From NCBI GenBank assembly GCA_942491955.1, contig CALOCV010000030.1, positions 8,473 through 72,472 on the forward strand: DNA of 64,000 nt, given 5' to 3'. Below, in pieces: positions 1-8,563 of the stretch. Under the pieces are notes generated by a model that ran no database searches, was not told the origin of the DNA, and worked only from the letters and a program-made list of their open reading frames with translations. Numbering within the stretch: the stretch's first letter is position 1; each line of letters opens with the position of its first letter. The translations under genes were made by a program, and so were the position numbers. This DNA is from Parachlamydiales bacterium. GTDB lineage: Bacteria > Chlamydiota > Chlamydiia > Chlamydiales > CALOCV01.

Positions 1-366
1 AATGTCGATTTCTTTTTGTTCCAAGGTAAAGAAAAATTAAAGCATTTCTCTATGCCTATCGTCAATCTTGCCTCAGAAGGCTTGTATCATGTGCGTAAGC
101 TTCCAGAGAGAAAAAAAATCACTTACGATCTTCCAGAGGGAAGAGGTTATTTATATTTTATAATTGAAAATAAACAAGTAAATATTCGTTATCCAATTAT
201 GGAAAAAGAAGCCGAAATCGATTATCAGGAGTTATTGGAGGCTTTTTTGCAATTCCGAGAAAAAGTGCGTAGCTTTTTACGAGAAAAAACTCCACACATT
301 TTAGAACATCCTGAATGGGGTGCATGGGTAGCTGGTGAAGAACTTCCTAAAGAAATGGAAAGCTAG
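1..366 (+). CDS. Immunity-like protein, array copy 0 (5' end cut by window edge)
   Basis: Frame 1 is open from base 1 (NVDFFLF...) to TAG 364-366. The C-terminal block DYQELLEAFLQFREKVRSFLREKTPHILEHPEWGAWVAGEELPKEME is shared with the other copies. Part of the tandem array around the orphan toxin. Confidence 0.6.
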   Translation, partial: NVDFFLFQGKEKLKHFSMPIVNLASEGLYHVRKLPERKKITYDLPEGRGYLYFIIENKQVNIRYPIMEKEAEIDYQELLEAFLQFREKVRSFLREKTPHILEHPEWGAWVAGEELPKEMES

Positions 367-552
367 AGTTGCTGAAATATCATTATTAAAAATCGTTGTT
401 CGTCCTTCATCAGGAAGTATAACAACAGCTTATCCATTCACGCCTCCACAATATGGAATGCTAGAGTTGCTGAAACATCATTATTAAAAATCGTTGTTCG
501 TCCTTCATCAGGGAGTGTAACAACGGCTTATCCATTCACACCTCCATCTTAA
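367..552 (+). repeat. Two tandem relics of the toxin gene 3' end (..SLLKIVVRPSSGS(I/V)TTAYPFTPP..)
   Basis: Direct nucleotide similarity to 2440-2511, the end of the orphan toxin (ETSLLKIVVHSSGRVTTAYPFTPRT*). The second relic also carries the last ~12 nt of an immunity gene (atggaatgctag). Confidence 0.8.
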
Positions 553-563
553 GGAAAAAATAA

Positions 564-1064
564 ATGATTGAATTTGATTTTAAAGGGGAACTACTCGAAG
601 GAGATGATCTCTCTGAAAATGAAGAAGAATTTAAAGATATTATTTCAACAGCAATAGAACATACGTGTTTTATTTGTCCGATTGTATTTATTGCAAATAA
701 TGTCGATTTCTTTTTGTTCGATGATGAAGATGGCGTAGGTCATCTTTCAATGCCCATCGTCAATCTTGCCTCAGAAGGCTTGTACCATGTGCGTAAGCTT
801 CCAGAGAGAAAAAAAATCACTTATAACCTCCCAGAAGCAATGGGTTATCTCTATTTCATTTTGGAAAATGGAAAAGTGAAGCTTCGCTATCCTTTTATGG
901 AAAAAGAGGCTGAAGTCGATTATCAAGAGTTATTGGAGGCTTTTTTGCAATTCCGAGAAAAAGTACGTAGCTTTTTACGAGAAAAAACTCCACACATTTT
1001 AGAACATCCTGAATGGGGTGCATGGGTAGCTGGTGAAGAACTTCCTAAGGAAATGGAATGCTAG
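564..1064 (+). CDS. Immunity-like protein, array copy 1 (intact, 166 aa)
   Basis: Complete ORF with aaggaaaaaataaATG upstream, which is the same start context as the other copies. It serves as the reference intact member of the family. Confidence 0.65.
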   Translation: MIEFDFKGELLEGDDLSENEEEFKDIISTAIEHTCFICPIVFIANNVDFFLFDDEDGVGHLSMPIVNLASEGLYHVRKLPERKKITYNLPEAMGYLYFILENGKVKLRYPFMEKEAEVDYQELLEAFLQFREKVRSFLREKTPHILEHPEWGAWVAGEELPKEMEC

Positions 1065-1152
1065 AGTTGCTGAAATATCATTATTAAAAATCGTCGTTCG
1101 TCCTTCATCAGGGAGTGTAACAACGGCTTATCCATTCACACCTCCATCTTAA
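1065..1152 (+). repeat. Relic of toxin gene 3' end
   Basis: Same ~88 nt unit as 367-552, 3021-3108 and 3607-3694. Confidence 0.8.
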
Positions 1153-1163
1153 GGAAAAAATAA

Positions 1164-1590
1164 ATGATTGAATTTGATTTTAAAGAAGAAGAATACGTCA
1201 TTGAAAATGAAGAAGAATTTAAAGATGTCATCTCACTAGCGATATCAGAAACATGCTTTCTGTATCCCATCGTATTTATTGCAAATAATGTCGATTTCTT
1301 TTTGTTCGATGATGAAGATGGCGTGGGTCATCTTTCGATGCCCATCGTTAATCTTGCCTCAGAAGGCTTGTATCACGTCCGTAAGATTGCCAAAGAGAAA
1401 AAAAATTACTTATGATCTTCCAGAGGGACGAGGTTATTTGTATTTAATTTTTGAAAATGGTAAAGTGAAACTTCTTTTTCCTAAAAGAGAGAAAGAAGCC
1501 GAAGTCGATTATCAGGAGTTATTAGAGGCTTTTTTACAATTCCGAGAAAAAGTACGCAGCTTTTTACGAGAAAAACTCCCCATATCTTAG
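1164..1590 (+). pseudogene. Immunity-like paralog, copy 2, frameshifted
   Basis: ORFs 1164..1415 and 1279..1590 together cover the family. The frame breaks at the A8 run 1398-1405. A second shift lies in the a-run of cgagaaaaactcccc near 1567-1572, which is A5 against A6 in the other copies. Confidence 0.7.
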
Positions 1591-2511
1591 ATCATCATCC
1601 CTGAACTTGGCCGTTGGCTCACCCCCGATCCCATCGGCTTTCACGATGGATACAACCTCTACGCCTATGTCCACAACAACCCCTTCCTCTATACCGACCT
1701 CCACGGACTCTGGGCGTGGGAATTTGCCAAAGGAGCCACAGGAGCAGGCTTGCAAGTCGTCGGCCTCCGTCTGGTTGTTGCAGGAGTCACCATCCTCTTC
1801 CCTCCCGCGGGTCTTGTCCTACAATCCGCTGTCAATGTCTACGCCATGTACAACATGTACCAGATGGGAAGCACCCTCTACACCATGGGCAGCCATATCG
1901 CTACCTCTGGCTATGAAGATGGCCTGGCCGGCGTAGGACAAGCCATAGAGGACATCGGCAGCGCCTTTGGAGAACTCTCCGCTGAAGATTGGGGAGGGAT
2001 GGTAGGAGGGATCGCTGCAGGGAAAGGGATCAAGATGGCCCAAACCAGGATCTCCCCCTTTAGTAAGCCGCCTACTCTCCAAGGACGTGTCGCCCCCACT
2101 ACCGCTGGCGCCCTTGCTACAAAGACCTTCCAAAACACTCTCACCCCCAAAGCGGCCAAGCTTACTACCAAAGCAAGCCCTCTATTTCTTTGCTACTCTC
2201 CTAAAATTGCTCAAGGGAATAGAGATTATGGAATGATTCATATTCTTATGCGACACTCTTTTGATTCAACATGTAGCGGAGTCTCTCGTTTTCCAAAAGG
2301 GTGGGGAGCAACAGAAATTCGAAACGCTATCGAAGAAGCTTTGGCCATGGGACAGGGAAATTGGGAACAGGGAAGAAATCATGTGTTAAATGTCAATATG
2401 GGTAGAATGATTGGATTCGATACAAACGGTAATGAAACATCATTATTAAAAATAGTCGTTCATTCTTCAGGCAGAGTAACAACGGCTTATCCATTCACAC
2501 CTAGGACGTAA
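1591..2511 (+). CDS. Orphan Rhs C-terminal cassette: Rhs core tip plus C-terminal toxin domain (tentatively EndoU-like nuclease)
   Basis: Frame 1 is open from 1591 with no start codon. It reads IIIPELGRWLTPDPIGFHDGYNLYAYVHNNPFLYTDLHGL, which is the Rhs-associated core end motif (DPxGL type). A hydrophobic/Gly-rich linker follows, then YGMIHILMRHSFD...RFPKGW...LLKIVVHSSGRVTTAYPF. The track ORF 1750..2511 is only the part after an internal Met. Confidence 0.7.
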   Translation: MIIPELGRWLTPDPIGFHDGYNLYAYVHNNPFLYTDLHGLWAWEFAKGATGAGLQVVGLRLVVAGVTILFPPAGLVLQSAVNVYAMYNMYQMGSTLYTMGSHIATSGYEDGLAGVGQAIEDIGSAFGELSAEDWGGMVGGIAAGKGIKMAQTRISPFSKPPTLQGRVAPTTAGALATKTFQNTLTPKAAKLTTKASPLFLCYSPKIAQGNRDYGMIHILMRHSFDSTCSGVSRFPKGWGATEIRNAIEEALAMGQGNWEQGRNHVLNVNMGRMIGFDTNGNETSLLKIVVHSSGRVTTAYPFTPRT

Positions 2512-2527
2512 TACAAAAAGGAATCCA

Positions 2528-3020
2528 ATGATTCATTTAGATTTTGAAGAAGAAGAGTATCTCATTGATGATAGCACAGATCTCAAAACAATAATTTCAA
2601 CAGCAATAGAACATACGTGTTTTATTTATCCGATCGTATTTGTTGTAAATAATATCGATTTTTTTTTATTTGAAGATAAATGTGGTTTAGGTCATTTTTC
2701 AATGCCTATTGTTAATTTTGCAGTAGATGGTTTGTTCTCTGTTAGACAACTTTTTAAAGAAAAAAAATATATATTTTGATCTTCCAGAAGGAGGAGGGAG
2801 TCTCCACCTCGAAATTAATGTAAATCAAATAGTTAAACTCACCTTCCCTCCACTTAAAAAAGAAGCCGAAATCGATTATCAGGAGTTATTGGAGGCTTTT
2901 TTACAATTCCGAGAAAAAGTACGTAGCTTTTTACGAGAAAAAACTCCACACATTTTAGAACATCCTGAATGGGGTGCATGGGTAGCTGGTGAAGAACTTC
3001 CTAAAGAAATGGAAAGCTAG
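2528..3020 (+). pseudogene. Immunity-like paralog, copy 3 (divergent centre), frameshifted; cognate position directly after the toxin
   Basis: Starts 17 nt after the toxin stop. ORFs 2528..2779 and 2727..3020 join across the A8 run 2760-2767. Confidence 0.65.
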
Positions 3021-3108
3021 AGTTGCTGAAATATCATTATTAAAAATCGTCGCTCGTCCTTCATCAGGGAGTGTAACAACAGCTTATCCATTCACGCCTC
3101 CACCATAA
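3021..3108 (+). repeat. Relic of toxin gene 3' end
   Basis: Same unit as 1065-1152. Confidence 0.8.
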
Positions 3109-3117
3109 GGAAAAGAT

Positions 3118-3606
3118 ATGATTGAATTTGATTTTAAAGAAGAAGAATACGTCATTGAAAATGAAGAAGAATTTAAAGATGTTATGTCAACAGCAATAGA
3201 ACATACATGTTTTCTGTATCCAGTTGTATTTATTGCAAATAATGTCGATTTCTTTTTGTTTAAAGGTAAAGAGAGATGGAAACATCTTTCAATGCCCATC
3301 GTTAATCTTGCATCAGAGGGCTTGTATCACGTGCGACGACTACCAGAAAAAAAAAAATTATTTATGATCTTCCAGAGGGACGAGGTTATTTGTATTTAAT
3401 TTTTGAAAATCATAGAGTCAAACTCTCTTTTGCCTAAAAGAGAAAAAGAAGCCGAAGTCGATTATCAAGAGTTATTAGAGGCTTTTTTACAATTCCGAGA
3501 AAAAGTACGCAGTTTTTTACGAGAAAAAACTCCACACATTTTAGAACATCCTGAATGGGGTGCATGGGTAGCTGGTGAAGAACTTCCTAAGGAAATGGAA
3601 TGCTAG
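3118..3606 (+). pseudogene. Immunity-like paralog, copy 4, with two frameshifts that together restore the frame
   Basis: The N- and C-terminal parts are both in frame 1. The central ~75 nt, between the A11 run 3347-3357 and the T4 run 3428-3431, reads correctly (YDLPEGRGYLYLIFENHRVKLS) only in another frame. Frame 1 hits TAA at 3397-3399. Confidence 0.7.
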
Positions 3607-3694
3607 AGTTGCTGAAATATCATTATTAAAAATAGTTGTTCGTCCTTCATCAGGAAGTATAACAACAGCTTATCCATTCACGCCTCCACCATAA
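3607..3694 (+). repeat. Relic of toxin gene 3' end
   Basis: Same unit as 1065-1152. Confidence 0.8.
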
Positions 3695-3703
3695 GGAAAA
3701 GAT

Positions 3704-4129
3704 ATGATTGAATTTGATTTTAAAGAAGAAGAATACGTCATTGAGAATGAGGAAGAATTTAAAGATGTCATCTCACTAGCGATATCAGAAACATGCTTTC
3801 TCTATCCAATTGTATTGATTGCAAATAATGTCGATTTCTTTTTGTTCGATGATGAAGATGGCGTGGGTCATCTTTCAATGCCCATCGTCAATCTTGCTTC
3901 AGAAGGATTGTATCATGTGCGTAGGCTTCCAGAGAAAAAAAAAATTACTTATGATCTTCCAGATGGGACAGGTTATTTATATTTAACGCTTGAAAATCAC
4001 AGGGTCAAACTCTCTTTGCCTGTACGTAAAAAAGAGGCTGAAGTCGATTATCAGGAGTTATTGAAGGCTTTTTTACAATTCCGAGAAAAAGTGCGCAGTT
4101 TTTTACGAGAAAAAACTCCTCATATCTTA
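3704..4129 (+). pseudogene. Immunity-like paralog, copy 5, 5' part (interrupted by IS insertion)
   Basis: Reads normally to ...REKTPHIL (tta 4127-4129), then the IS inverted repeat begins. The remainder of the gene resumes at 5591. Confidence 0.8.
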
Positions 4130-4990
4130 GAACCTGTTTAAAATCTTTTTAAAAGAAGAACTACAAATGCTAAGACTACCATAGTTAAGCTAGTATTTAG
4201 CTTTCTTTCACAGTTTTTCCATAATCTTCTACACTTTTCAAGCCAGCTAAAAGAACGTTCCACAACCCATCTTTTGGGAATCACTTTAAAAGTATGCAAT
4301 TCATTTCTCTTGGCTATTTCTACTGGACAACCCAATATCTCTTGAATACCATCTGAAAATGGTTCTCCAGAGTATCCTCCATCAGCTAAAACGTTTTTTT
4401 ACTTCAGATAAAAAACTCTTCTTCAATGAACATGCTTCTAGCGCTCCTTTCCTATCTGTAATATTTGCTGTAGTTATATGAATTGCATGAGGTAATCCTT
4501 GGGTGTCTACAGCGATGTGTCGTTTTATCCCTGAAATTTTTTTTCCTGCATCATACCCTTTACTCTCAGCTGTATCGGTATTTTTAACGCTTTGCGCATC
4601 AATTATTATAAAACTGGTTTTCTCTTTCCGACCATTGTTTTGTCGGACCTCTCCAACCATTTTTTTTTAAAACTTTCTCAAGGATGCTTTCTGAATTATC
4701 ATCGCTTTCTTTCCATAACTTGAAATAGTAATAGCAAAGTTCCCATTTAGGATATTCTTTTGGCAACATACGCCACTGACAGCCACTTTTTAAAACATAT
4801 AAAATTCCACAAAAAATATCAAAAAGGTCTACGGTTCTAGGGCGTGTTTTTTTTCGCACAGACTCAAGCAAAGGTTTGATTTTGTCAAATTGCTTTCGAG
4901 AAATATCGCTTGGATAAGAGTGAGCCATCATTGCCTCCAAAGTTTTGAAAGCAATTTTTATACAGGATTAGAAAGATTTTAAACAGATTC
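4130..4990 (-). mobile_element. IS5-family insertion sequence (IS427/IS1031-like), 861 bp
   Basis: Terminal inverted repeats are GAACCTGTTTAAAATCTTT at 4130-4148 and its near-complement at 4972-4990. TTA lies on both flanks. A two-ORF transposase sits inside. Confidence 0.8.
4138..4940 (-). pseudogene. IS5-family DDE transposase (orfA/orfB, A9 slippery run, plus an extra frameshift)
   Basis: The N-terminal ORF 4599..4940 has the DUF4096-type motif (LYVLKSGCQWRMLPKEYP). The 4382..4660 ORF has IIDAQSVKNTD. The 4138..4335 ORF has PKRWVVERSFSWL. orfA and orfB overlap at the A9 run (forward T9, 4660-4668). The DDE part is additionally broken at the A7 run (forward T7, 4394-4400). Confidence 0.75.
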
Positions 4991-5025
4991 TTAAGAAACT
5001 TGGTTGACATATCTCAGCAATAAAA

Positions 5026-5307
5026 ACTACCACAGAGCCCACAGAGAGCACAGAGAGAGGGTTATATTTTCATTCGACGAATACCTTCTACCAATCGTTT
5101 CACATTAAAATTGATCAGCAATCCTCGGGCACAAGTTCCATAGAGCTTTAAATAAGATAGTCGTTGTGCTTCGTGTATTAGAGCTATTCCATTCACAGAT
5201 TTAATTTCTATAATTACCTGATCCTCTACAACTTCTTCAGACATTTCTGGATGCACTAAACAATCTATATGTCCTCCCTCTGTGTTCTCTGTGGGCTCTG
5301 TGGTAGT
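5026..5307. repeat. Small element bounded by ~35 bp inverted repeats rich in CACAGAG
   Basis: 5026-5061 (actaccacagagcccacagagagcacagagagaggg) is the reverse complement of 5273-5307 with 2 mismatches. It encloses ORF 5062..5256. Confidence 0.7.
5062..5256 (-). pseudogene. GxxExxY-family (PD-(D/E)XK-like) protein, C-terminal half only
   Basis: The pattern VIIEIKSV...IHEAQRLSYLKL...GLLINFN..RLVEGIRR matches the C-terminal half of GxxExxY proteins. The N-terminal half carrying the name motif is absent. Confidence 0.5.
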
Positions 5308-5384
5308 TTATTTTCTAAAAACTCGTTCAAAACTGTTTTACGAATAAAACGACAAAAGCAAGGATGACCATATGTAAACTGGTT

Positions 5385-5590
5385 TTTCAAACATATGAAA
5401 TGCCACAAATTACATCATATAAGTCGACCGCTCTAGGACGTGTTTTTTTTCTTGCAGATTCCAGAAGAGGTTTAATTTTGTTAAACTGTTCACGATCCAT
5501 ATCGCTAGGATAGCAATGGGGCATAAAATACCTACAATTGTCTTGGAAAATAATTGTTTATACAGGATTAGAAAGATTTTAAACAGGTTC
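5385..5590 (-). mobile_element. Truncated second, divergent IS5-family copy (right end and transposase N-terminus only)
   Basis: 5561-5590 repeats the IS end (tacaggattagaaagattttaaacaggttc). 5400-5525 encodes MPHCYPSDMDREQFNKIKPLLESARKKTRPRAVDLYDV.., which is homologous but not identical to the 4599..4940 product. Confidence 0.7.
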
Positions 5591-5668
5591 TTAGAACATC
5601 CTTATTGGGGTGCATGGGTAGCAGGTGAAGAACACGCTTATGACAAGGAGTGGATCCAGAGTTCTTGA
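5591..5668 (+). pseudogene. Immunity-like paralog copy 5, 3' part
   Basis: Reads LEHPYWGAWVAGEE.. directly after the IS end. Joining 4129 to 5591 and removing one TTA restores ...PHILEHP... Confidence 0.75.
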
Positions 5669-6067
5669 GATATCGCGATACAAAGAGGAGACGTAGAGCA
5701 CTAAAAAGCGTGGGAAGAGAGGGATGTGAGGTATATAGCGAATAGGATTCAAAATCGGGATTTTGCATGGATCCTTATCTATGCAATCTTTTGTTTGACC
5801 TCTACAGGATATCCCAGTTCTTCCAAAACTTTTTCATTGATTTTTGTGCACGAAGTTTATGTGGGTTTGTATTGAATCCTATTGAGGGTTTAAAAGAAAG
5901 CGGCCTGCGCTCTTGTTAAAAAAATAAAAAAAATATTGCTATGCTATAATGATAAGAGAGGGGTGTGCTTCTGCTTATCTTATATCGCTTTTTTTCGATA
6001 AATGCCCCCTTTTCTTGAAATAAGCAGGGGCAATCATTTATTAAGTATTTAACTAAGAGGGATTTTT

Positions 6068-8563
6068 ATGACCAATCCCATCAATCCGTTAGAACCTAGC
6101 GATATCCCCCCTATTCCACCTAGCGAAATTCCATCGATTAACGAACCTGCTCAAGGCGAGAGTGACACCATCGGAGCCTTTACCGACCCCGATTCCTTTT
6201 TTATCACCAATGCGAGCTCTTTTCTTCCTCTTCCCGATGATATCGATATTTTGACCTATTTAAAGCTTTTGGGGGATAGTATCCTTGAGTTCCAAAATGA
6301 GCTCCGCGTCTCTACCCGTTCTACCCTCGACCAACGGGCTCTTTTCCGCGGTGCCATTGTTAATGTTTTCCAAAATTTTTCCCTTCTACTCGATGCTCTA
6401 AAAGATATCGTTGAAGAAGGAGAACAACTCGTTGATGAAGCCAATGAAGACATCGATGCTGTGAATCAAAGTACCGATGCCCACAACGCAGCACTTGCGA
6501 CCGATCAACAACAACTCGAAGCCATGCAAACCGTTATTGATAATTACAATACCGCTCTACAAGCTTGGAGAGATTGTGCATCAGGTTGTGGTGCTCTTAT
6601 CCTTGCATGGGTCCAAGCAGCGACCTTCTACAATGTGCAAAGAGCCTCTTACAATACTTACCGCAATACCAGAAATCCCGAAATTGCCGACTACAACGAC
6701 GCTCTTGGAGAATATGCGTTCCAGCGCCTCTTTCAAAATGGAGATATTTTCTCCTACAATCAAGACCATGCCCAAACACCCGGATTCGTCCCGATCCACT
6801 TAATGCAAGGAACGAATCCCGATGAAGTTCCTGAACTTCCTGCATACAGTTCGGTATCGATTCCCGGTAATCCCTTATCTACTGACCCCAATACCCTCCC
6901 CCTCCTAGATCCCATCTCGCAAGCAGAAATCGATGAAGCAACGACTCCAGTAACAAAGCCCCCTAATCTAACGTTTGAAGGAAACCTAGACATCGTTAAC
7001 CAAGGACTCCTGCCCTTTCTTATCCCCGCTCTCAATTTTGCAAATCAACTAGTCACCGTTCTCGATGCACAAGAACGGTTTGATCCCGATGATGAACTCG
7101 AATCGGCACGCGATAAGCTGCTTCCTCCTGCCTTCTTCAATCAACAGACTGAGGCTATTTTAAAAACCGATACGGGTGCAGGCAGTAATATCGGCCTGAC
7201 ACAGGTGACTTTGACAGCCAATGATGCCGTTCTTGAAGGAATTATCTCTCGGTCATTGATCGAAAACGTTTTCCGACAACAACAACTCAAATTAGAATCC
7301 TCTTTTTTCGGTCAGACACAATTGATTTTAGCCAGTGTTTTTGGAACTAACTTGTTACGCGCCATTCCACCAGGATTGAGCATCATTAGCCCTCAACTCC
7401 CTAACGTAACCGCGAATTCTCCCATTTTTTCTATTGTCTTTGCCCTCTCCTTTAGCAATCGGGTCCAAGAAATCATTGAACAAGGGGTTTTAGGGGGTGC
7501 TATCGAAGACCTCATTGCGAATGCTCCCCAATTGCAATCGCTTTCTGCAGGGCAAAAAGCCGATATACAGAATGATCTTTCCAATACTGCCACCACCTCG
7601 TTCATTCTCGTTTCTGCAGGTCTTCTCGCTCGCACACTGGGCCTTCCCTCTCTTGTCTCTCAACTTCTAGCGACATTCGGCATCCTTTCACCCTCCCAAC
7701 AAAAAAGCCTATTCTCTGGCGAGGAAGATACTCTAACGCTGCGTCAACAGCAGCGAGAAGATTTGTTGAATCGATTTGTTAACCAAGGATTTGGACCCAA
7801 TGAAGCACAATTTTTGAGTGCAACCGCTGTTGATAATCTCAACCGAGGTTTTATTAATCCTCTTCTCTTTCCCATTACTCAAGACAATCTTCGGGTCGAT
7901 GCTCTCTCCTCAAATCTAGCAAGTGGGCTCGTCTTTAAAGGCATTCCATCACCAAGAGCACAATCCATTGCCGAAGCAGCGGTACAAAGTGTCCTCGGAG
8001 GAGGAACTTCTTTCAATCGCCTCACCTCTCTCCGCGATGCACTCCGCACGGCTCTACGAGCAGAAGGAGTTCCCGGTTCGACAGCGGAAGAGGTCTCGAA
8101 TGCAGCCGACTTCGAAGGAAATCTAACAGACCCTCTTGCTAACGTTCCCGTTGGAAGCCTAACGCCAGAACAACTCATTAATACGGTCGGAGAAAGAGTT
8201 TCTGCTCTTCTCGACCCTGTATTAGGATCCAAATTAACGGGGCAGATCCGTGAAGAAATCACCCGTTCTCTTGCAGGAACCGAGCCTGCTGGTATCGAAG
8301 CTGTCAAAGATGAGAAAACTCCATTTTCTCTAACAAGCCTTCTTCGCGATCACAGAATTGCCGATGAGTCATCGGCTACTGCTGAAGCCAAAGAGAACCA
8401 AGCGGCCGCATTCCAAGAAAAAATGGCCCCTCATCACAATCTTTATGAGCTCGAAAGGAGGATGATCGATCCAGCAAATATCTACCTATTTATGTACTCC
8501 AGCGCGATGAATTTGGGCCTAGAACCCAAAGAATGGAAGCAATCCATTGATATTCAGGCATAA
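6068..8563 (+). CDS. Large hypothetical protein (831 aa), candidate secreted protein
   Basis: Long ORF with an RBS-like agaggg upstream and a Pro/Ser-rich low-complexity N-terminus. First gene of a co-directional block ending in T3SS chaperone/translocator genes. Confidence 0.6.
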   Translation: MTNPINPLEPSDIPPIPPSEIPSINEPAQGESDTIGAFTDPDSFFITNASSFLPLPDDIDILTYLKLLGDSILEFQNELRVSTRSTLDQRALFRGAIVNVFQNFSLLLDALKDIVEEGEQLVDEANEDIDAVNQSTDAHNAALATDQQQLEAMQTVIDNYNTALQAWRDCASGCGALILAWVQAATFYNVQRASYNTYRNTRNPEIADYNDALGEYAFQRLFQNGDIFSYNQDHAQTPGFVPIHLMQGTNPDEVPELPAYSSVSIPGNPLSTDPNTLPLLDPISQAEIDEATTPVTKPPNLTFEGNLDIVNQGLLPFLIPALNFANQLVTVLDAQERFDPDDELESARDKLLPPAFFNQQTEAILKTDTGAGSNIGLTQVTLTANDAVLEGIISRSLIENVFRQQQLKLESSFFGQTQLILASVFGTNLLRAIPPGLSIISPQLPNVTANSPIFSIVFALSFSNRVQEIIEQGVLGGAIEDLIANAPQLQSLSAGQKADIQNDLSNTATTSFILVSAGLLARTLGLPSLVSQLLATFGILSPSQQKSLFSGEEDTLTLRQQQREDLLNRFVNQGFGPNEAQFLSATAVDNLNRGFINPLLFPITQDNLRVDALSSNLASGLVFKGIPSPRAQSIAEAAVQSVLGGGTSFNRLTSLRDALRTALRAEGVPGSTAEEVSNAADFEGNLTDPLANVPVGSLTPEQLINTVGERVSALLDPVLGSKLTGQIREEITRSLAGTEPAGIEAVKDEKTPFSLTSLLRDHRIADESSATAEAKENQAAAFQEKMAPHHNLYELERRMIDPANIYLFMYSSAMNLGLEPKEWKQSIDIQA

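Follow-up and report, generated by a model that had tools for sequence, protein, structure and literature searches.

Results

An open rhs frame inside an array of putative immunity genes

The DNA analysed here is a 64-kb stretch (64,000 nucleotides, referred to as the window) of contig CALOCV010000030.1, assigned to a Parachlamydiales bacterium. The element in question is an open frame at 1591-2511 that lies between the third and the fourth copy of a tandem array of putative immunity genes and carries the 3' end of an rhs polymorphic-toxin gene. We refer to it as the orphan rhs-CT. Its parts and the two immunity copies that flank it are as follows.

1591-2511, plus strand: orphan rhs-CT open frame, 306 codons and the stop TAA at 2509-2511
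1591-1606, plus strand: zone in which immunity copy 3 joins the Rhs core (ATCATCATCCCTGAA); CCTGAA is common to both partners
1600-1710, plus strand: Rhs core end (PELGRWLTPDPIG...NNPFLYTDLHGL; TIGR03696), in which the DPxGL cleavage motif takes the form DLxGL
1711-2130, plus strand: Gly/Ala-rich hydrophobic linker, GC 58%, with a transmembrane-like segment around residues 50-83 and 100% identity to the main Rhs protein (below) up to residue 157
2176-2508, plus strand: toxin domain of ~110 residues, predicted BECR-fold RNase; H217 (2239-2241), H222 (2254-2256), G275 and P301 are invariant
1164-1606, plus strand: immunity copy 3, a pseudogene that is frameshifted by -2 in the A8 tract 1398-1405, lacks 1 nt in 1571-1575 and is cut at HPE by the fusion to the Rhs core
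2528-3020, plus strand: immunity copy 4, presumed to protect against the orphan toxin, with a -1 frameshift in the A8 tract 2760-2767

In frame 1, the stretch 1591-2511 starts IIIPELGRWLTPDPIGFHDGYNLYAYVHNNPFLYTDLHGL and is uninterrupted up to the TAA. The TAG at 1588-1590 is present and closes the frame on its 5' side, so that, as the original prediction had it, the frame opens right after this codon and has no start codon, a statement that is valid up to 1750. The earliest ATG, GTG or TTG in the frame is the TTG at 1750 and the earliest ATG is at 1846; the "internal Met at 1750" of the prediction is therefore a TTG, that is, a Leu codon or an alternative start. The orphan has no YD-repeat shell, no N-terminal region and no initiation codon, and its 5' neighbour is the immunity array. 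A tblastn search of the 64-kb window found neither Rhs/YD repeats nor another copy of the core, in line with the predicted absence of Rhs repeats upstream. Given that it has no Rhs shell, export signal or 5' start codon, the orphan is not makeable as a deliverable toxin as it stands. Core and linker have a GC content of 55-58%, against 42% for the whole window; that of the toxin domain is 41%, and the immunity genes are at 33-37%. The ATG of copy 4 (2528) lies 16 nt past the stop of the orphan toxin.

Orphan residues 4-40 match positions 40-76 of the 76 positions of the NCBIfam model TIGR03696 (Rhs_assc_core) with an E value of 2.3e-11 and 44.1 bits, above the cut-off of 32.5; thus the core end is not a chance resemblance, and the assignment of the start of frame 1 to the conserved end of the Rhs core is confirmed. 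The boundary motif of the orphan, PFLYTDLHGL, is of the PxxxxDPxGL type. Across 168 related core ends the D, G and L of this motif are invariant, and the residue that follows D is L in 76 and P in 63, making DLxGL the commonest form of the cleavage motif in this chlamydial clade, above DPxGL. The linker weakly resembles the stretches that follow the core in other Rhs proteins of chlamydiae.

A matching full-length rhs gene on the same contig

The ORF (open reading frame) that gene callers predict from TTG 1750 (P0001) shares a 90% cluster with P0152, a 1804-aa Rhs protein that we found by exact-sequence look-up and that is encoded on the orphan's own 203,441-bp contig. P0152 has a signal-peptide-like N-terminus (MYRILFLLFFSSVFLFS), DUF6531 plus RHS repeats (177 bits) and a core end that reads ...YGMRYYIPELGRWLTPDPIG.... 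Orphan residues 3-157 and P0152 residues 1502-1656 are identical at 155 of 155 positions. Identity then declines to 44 of 48 over orphan residues 158-205 and to 72 of 99 (73%) between the two toxin domains; overall, the orphan and the C-terminus of P0152 are identical at 271 of 302 residues. The segment common to both comprises 38 core residues and a 117-residue linker, about 465 bp. The search for an rhs gene elsewhere in the genome that shares the core segment is thus positive. It had been proposed that the cassette retains just enough core to recombine back into a main rhs gene; the match to P0152 upholds the capacity to recombine, but "just enough core" understates the shared segment, which includes the 117 linker residues.

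Encoded on the same contig, outside the window, is P0165, a 169-aa immunity paralog that is 50-53% identical to the array copies and has the same C-terminal end as they do (...WVAGEELPEEMEC). P0165 is the obvious candidate for the immunity protein of the main toxin P0152. Because only P0165 and the start of immunity copy 1 fall outside the window, the simplest layout would place rhs(P0152), P0165 and copy 1 in this order immediately upstream of position 1, an adjacency and orientation that we infer.

The junction with immunity copy 3

The 5' edge of the orphan is fused to a broken immunity paralog, as predicted, yet the place and the cause of the break differ from the prediction, according to which copy 3 diverges from its paralogs exactly at the TAG. 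The ending REKLPIS* of copy 3, where the paralogs have REKTPHILEHPEW, goes back to a single A missing from the A-run 1571-1575 (A5, not A6), and in the shifted frame copy 3 reads on as TPHILDHHPE. Alignment of the paralog 3' ends shows that the DNA homology of copy 3 extends to the CCTGAA at 1601-1606. On the other side, protein identity of the orphan to P0152 starts at Ile3 (position 1597), and blastn homology to other chlamydial rhs genes begins at 1598-1609. Given that paralog homology reaches 1606 and identity to P0152 runs from 1597, the junction lies inside 1591-1606. Judged from the letters of the two partners, the join is an illegitimate, microhomology-type junction with 6 bp (CCTGAA).

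Past its poly-A frameshift, pseudogene copy 3 has a frame-1 reading (1279-1590) whose frame agrees with that of the orphan, and the TAG at 1588-1590 is the sole separator of the two. This shared frame is probably a coincidence. A readthrough fusion across the TAG was considered and rejected as such, the chance of a common frame being one in three.

The toxin domain

The motifs HILMRH (containing H217 and H222), RFPKGW and TAYP that had been noted in the orphan are all found. An exhaustive phmmer search with residues 181-306 brought out the family, 205 cluster representatives at E<1e-3; a word-indexed protein search with the toxin alignment returned one protein only. In nearly all of the best 150 of the 205 homologues the match reaches the C-terminus of the protein, and these proteins are 68-2550 aa long. 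Such C-terminal placement in host proteins of varied length is the signature of a polymorphic-toxin tip. In an alignment of 35 homologues H217, H222, G275 and P301 (orphan numbering) are invariant, and the motifs are GNxKxGLxHILxRH and TAYP.

Comparison of the toxin profile with PDB sequences gave one meaningful match, 7m5f_C (E 0.005 over 34 residues with GNxKxGLxHIxxxH), in which the HxxxxH helix of 7m5f_C is aligned with H217-H222; a single-sequence PDB search with the toxin domain gave chance matches only. An AlphaFold2 model of the domain, built on the alignment (pLDDT 90, pTM 0.81), is a single helix-plus-sheet unit of ~100 residues with helices at 24-32 and 50-63 and four strands. The best PDB matches of this model in Foldseek are 7m5f_C, 9v8i_B and 5e3e_B (probability 1.00, 0.99 and 0.97), followed by colicin D. 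5E3E, among the best structural neighbours, is the CdiA-CT of Y. kristensenii. These neighbours are RNase toxins, and for two of them, 7m5f_C and 9v8i_B, the literature gives a BECR fold. On the strength of the model, the domain is predicted to be a BECR-fold RNase toxin, closest to the CdiA-CT family of strain BWH57 to which 7m5f_C belongs.

The domain had also been read, tentatively, as EndoU-like. The sole Pfam family with any signal is indeed EndoU_bacteria (PF14436), which scores 18.6 bits with the full ORF and 21.4 bits with the domain alone, below the cut-off of 25.3 (E 0.0026-0.00035). The match spans profile positions 68-127 of 129, half the model, and 5 of the 35 homologues have it at E<0.01. 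With a sub-threshold score, a partial profile and no EndoU among the 50 Foldseek PDB matches listed, membership in the EndoU family was rejected; the term EndoU-like applies at the level of the BECR superfamily only.

The immunity array

Positions 1-4140 form a tandem array with units of ~590 bp, each composed of the tail of a toxin gene (the last ~24 codons) and an immunity gene of 162-166 codons. The tail remnants, a repeat family seen by tblastn, encode E(I/T)SLLKIVVRPSSGS(V/I)TTAYPFTP. Besides copies 3 and 4, the array holds the following features.

1-366, plus strand: immunity copy 1, intact, with its C-terminal 121 codons in the window; the full protein, P0175 (162 aa), starts ~123 bp upstream of the window
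374-445 and 472-543, plus strand: two tandem toxin-tail remnants between copies 1 and 2, 98 bp apart; other units have one
564-1064, plus strand: immunity copy 2, intact, 166 aa
1072-1143, plus strand: toxin-tail remnant before copy 3 (tblastn)
3028-3099, plus strand: toxin-tail remnant before copy 5 (tblastn)
3118-3606, plus strand: immunity copy 5, a pseudogene frameshifted in the A11 tract 3347-3357
3614-3685, plus strand: toxin-tail remnant before copy 6 (tblastn)
3704-4133, plus strand: 5' part of immunity copy 6, split by an insertion sequence (IS); its 3' end resumes at 5591-5668
4131-4993, minus strand: IS5-family IS that closes the array (Pfam DUF4096, E 6e-22; DDE_Tnp_1, E 4e-16), with inverted ends visible

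Five of the six window copies have a toxin tail in front of them; four of these tails come from a displaced allele, and the one before copy 4 is the orphan's own. Over the C-terminal ~55 residues the array copies are 85-100% identical to one another. By their N-terminal ~110 residues the immunity proteins fall into three groups, namely P0165, copy 4, and copies 1, 2, 3, 5 and 6; the N-terminal 110 aa of copy 4 are 56-59% identical to those of the other array copies. The three groups run parallel to as many toxin alleles, namely the main one, that of the orphan and a third, now seen only as tail remnants. To judge from this pattern of identity, the mosaic make-up of the paralogs suggests gene conversion or recombination in their conserved 3' part.

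Every paralog contains a poly-A tract (A8 at 111-118, 809-816, 1398-1405 and 2760-2767, A11 at 3347-3357 and A10 at 3935-3944). The tracts lie at the same Lys-rich position (LP-E/K-R/K-K-K), and three of the six copies are frameshifted right there (-2, -1 and -1); the KKK motif is retained in distant immunity homologues. The frameshifts could reflect a hot spot of slipped-strand or transcriptional slippage, or homopolymer sequencing errors.

Pfam returned nothing meaningful for the window copies or for the homologue in the metagenome locus described below (one 12-bit sub-threshold match), and NCBIfam gave no match for copy 2. A model of the immunity protein (pLDDT 82.6) had no convincing neighbour in the PDB (TM-score <=0.33).

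In the IS5-family element the DUF4096 and DDE_Tnp_1 ORFs are apparently frameshifted. A second, partial IS copy (5383-5593) abuts the 3' end of copy 6 (5591-5668) at the same TTAGAAC site, and a small minus-strand ORF (5062-5256) lies between the two IS copies. Further on, 6068-32640 contains large ORFs (831, 428, 456, 612, 737, 630, 609 and 693 aa) without an NCBIfam match; that of 831 aa, the sole ORF of the run scanned with Pfam, has sub-threshold matches only.

Related loci

A scan of genomes with the core peptide matched almost exclusively metagenome-assembled genomes (MAGs) of environmental Chlamydiae, the best match being 76% identical over 37 aa, and the nearest protein relative of the Rhs core, P0002, is from a Parachlamydiaceae MAG. 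On these relatives of the Rhs core, the source is judged to be probably a Chlamydia-like bacterium. In a scan of metagenomes the best nucleotide identity was 83%. Altogether 156 related loci, mostly of environmental Chlamydiae, contain 193 core-end matches, 79 of which end ORFs of at least 800 codons. Orphan-like core ends make up 60 of the 193, and these often lie directly downstream of a full-length rhs gene. No synteny was found between the genes of the window and the related chlamydial loci. One 3.9-Mb MAG (CAVQMM010000001.1) contributes eight of the related rhs loci.

A 2.3-kb metagenome contig (locus L132, VAPE01020104.1) has a toxin homologue at 64-408 followed, 13 nt further on, by an immunity homologue at 422-943, each at 35% identity. 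Toxin and immunity gene stand in the same order here, and the toxin-immunity pairing is therefore conserved. L132 (1-2260) is low in GC. Downstream of the pair it contains another small ORF that resembles a toxin (1114-1530) and two small ORFs that are paralogs; the locus looks like a multi-cassette polymorphic-toxin locus of an unrelated organism.

Discussion

In all probability, the stretch 1591-2511 is an orphan rhs-CT cassette, corresponding to the 3' end of an rhs polymorphic-toxin gene and able to recombine with the main gene encoding P0152. The cassette consists of the last 38 core residues with their DLxGL motif, a linker of 117-150 residues, a predicted BECR-fold RNase toxin of ~110 residues and a presumed immunity gene of its own (2528-3020). 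One illegitimate event at CCTGAA (1591-1606) probably joined this cassette to an immunity paralog truncated at its 3' end. The cassette itself may be an older tip that was displaced by an incoming one, or it may stem from a local tandem duplication; both origins predict the junction that is observed. Homologous recombination of the RecA type across ~465 bp could then swap the orphan toxin tip onto an expressed and exported Rhs scaffold, and the array of immunity paralogs might guard against the toxin alleles of relatives.

Several observations weigh against this reading. The structural matches of the toxin domain are modest (Foldseek E 5e-3 to 5e-2, TM-score 0.33-0.53), and the RNase activity of the family is a prediction. 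The comparison with P0152 is one of protein sequences. Copy 4, the cognate immunity gene of the orphan, is frameshifted in the A8 tract 2760-2767, the same fate of disruption has befallen copies 3, 5 and 6, and the array has taken up an IS; together, broken copies and IS look like decay rather than like a maintained reservoir.

A rival reading takes the locus for a dead relic, in which the cassette, along with the greater part of the array, would be a decaying leftover of past duplications in an rhs locus, functionless and never to be re-used. We regard this as a serious rival, though as the less probable reading. Frameshift, truncation or an IS has disrupted four of the six immunity genes seen in the window, the orphan's own antidote gene among them, the orphan has no start codon, and a promoter and terminator scan of 1-6100 gave nothing above the shuffled expectation (15 promoter-like sites against 17.7 expected). 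Yet the orphan frame is intact for 306 codons and the candidate catalytic histidines are kept, and the 155 consecutive residues that are the same as in the main gene imply that the cassette arose very recently or that gene conversion is still going on. Likewise, the frameshifts are in homopolymer tracts, where they are reversible or possibly sequencing errors. Less easily reconciled with the locus is expression of the orphan from an internal start such as TTG 1750, which would yield a 253-aa linker-plus-toxin protein and, with the immunity protein, a module of the toxin-antitoxin kind. An AGGAG precedes TTG 1750 with a 5-nt spacer, gene callers predict the ORF from this very codon (P0001), and an orphan Rhs toxin of Salmonella provides a precedent (PMC7043789). 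On the other hand, the AGGAG coincides with Gly/Ala codons (GGA GCA GGC) and could be there by chance, the same TTG and its context are presumably inside the main gene too, and no promoter signal stands out. Given that the cognate immunity gene is frameshifted, expression would moreover be toxic to the cell itself unless the frameshift is an error, and we consider an internal start unlikely.

That the join of immunity gene and core is an assembler chimera across repeats deserves almost no credence. The region is highly repetitive, with its ~590-bp units and a probable ~465-bp copy of part of the main gene, but the partners at the junction share only the 6 bp CCTGAA, far below any assembler k-mer. 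Moreover, the sequences of the orphan toxin and of copy 4 are unique alleles rather than duplicates of the main ones, and the same architecture recurs in many independent chlamydial loci.

An orphan rhs-CT cassette that can recombine with P0152 is thus the reading we retain, and it leaves room for a speculation on the poly-A tracts that we hold to be very unlikely. The tracts (A8-A11) might act as slippage switches that choose between immunity specificities and, together with recombination of the orphan tip, form a phase-variable system of self/non-self identity. If so, the A-tract switch would also set the immunity that is needed before the orphan tip joins the main Rhs protein in an intracellular Chlamydia-like bacterium.

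Comparison with known systems

The locus is a clean, internally consistent example of an orphan cassette of Rhs polymorphic toxins in what is probably a Chlamydia-like bacterium, with a main gene of Sec type. Our understanding of such systems is unchanged by it, as orphan cassettes, recombination with a main gene and chlamydial RHS toxins are all already known. Orphan rhs-CT/rhsI and cdiA-CT/cdiI modules that have no initiation codon and keep the boundary motif have been described (PMC3150448). In Salmonella, recombination between main and orphan rhs across exact homology is documented and an orphan Rhs toxin is shown to be expressed internally (PMC7043789). Zhang et al. (2012) reported that toxin cassettes recombine with a constant gene body and listed the chlamydiae among the lineages with several RHS-associated toxin domains, including Tox-EndoU (PMC3482391). 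Points of modest interest are the Rhs protein with a Sec signal, the homogeneous series of alleles, the unannotated families and the recurrent poly-A hot spot. Neither the toxin family, with at least 205 cluster representatives, nor the immunity family is captured by any Pfam or NCBIfam model.

The closest parallels are the enterobacterial orphan rhs-CT/rhsI modules (Salmonella Typhimurium rhs-orphan, Dickeya dadantii 3937 rhsC, Yersinia pseudotuberculosis). There as here, a 3' fragment of rhs with core and a DPxGL-type motif has neither an Rhs shell nor a proper start, its own immunity gene follows downstream, and a full-length rhs in the same genome has exact homology that permits exchange of tips. 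In contrast to the enterobacterial orphans, the host here is probably a Chlamydia-like bacterium, and the main Rhs protein has a Sec-type signal rather than a PAAR/VgrG context of the type VI secretion system. The main and the orphan toxin belong here to a single family, of which they are two alleles (73% identity), rather than being unrelated domains. A long linker after the core forms part of the shared segment, and the cassette is set in a homogeneous array of immunity paralogs. Likewise, the orphan cdiA-CT/cdiI of E. coli EC93 is a detached tip that lacks an initiation codon, keeps the boundary motif and has a translatable immunity gene behind it, but it belongs to a CdiA protein of the type V secretion system with a VENN motif, whereas an Rhs core with DLxGL stands at the boundary here.

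As to the toxin, its family seems to be related to the CdiA-CT of Serratia marcescens BWH57 (7M5F), an uncharacterised domain that is the best structural match (probability 1.0, TM-score 0.48). 7M5F is described as a BECR-fold RNase domain with H47, E51, H52 and R89 as active-site candidates (PMC8616854). It shares GNxKxGLxHIxxxH with the orphan, whose histidines correspond to the proposed active-site residues H47 and H52; sequence identity, however, is 19%, the profile match spans 34 residues, and the immunity proteins are unrelated. The second-best structural match (TM-score 0.50-0.53) is YxiD, an LXG toxin of Bacillus subtilis (Ntox50, PDB 9V8I), for which BECR-fold tRNase activity with catalytic histidines and neutralisation by a downstream immunity protein have been shown experimentally (PMC12700104). 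The orphan differs from YxiD in that it has no Pfam match to Ntox50 and no HxVP; YxiD is delivered by the type VII secretion system, and its immunity protein is a different one. With EndoU_bacteria/Tox-EndoU (PF14436) the orphan domain has the broad BECR superfamily in common, but it is a single unit of ~100 residues, whereas two BECR units are described for the core of EndoU (PMC3482391).

Finally, the array recalls polyimmunity loci in its tandem, same-strand and closely spaced immunity paralogs. By definition, no toxin gene or cassette ever interrupts such loci (PMC3482391), whereas the units here carry toxin-tail remnants and one complete cassette is set among them. It is therefore a regular polymorphic-toxin locus with remnants, not a polyimmunity locus.

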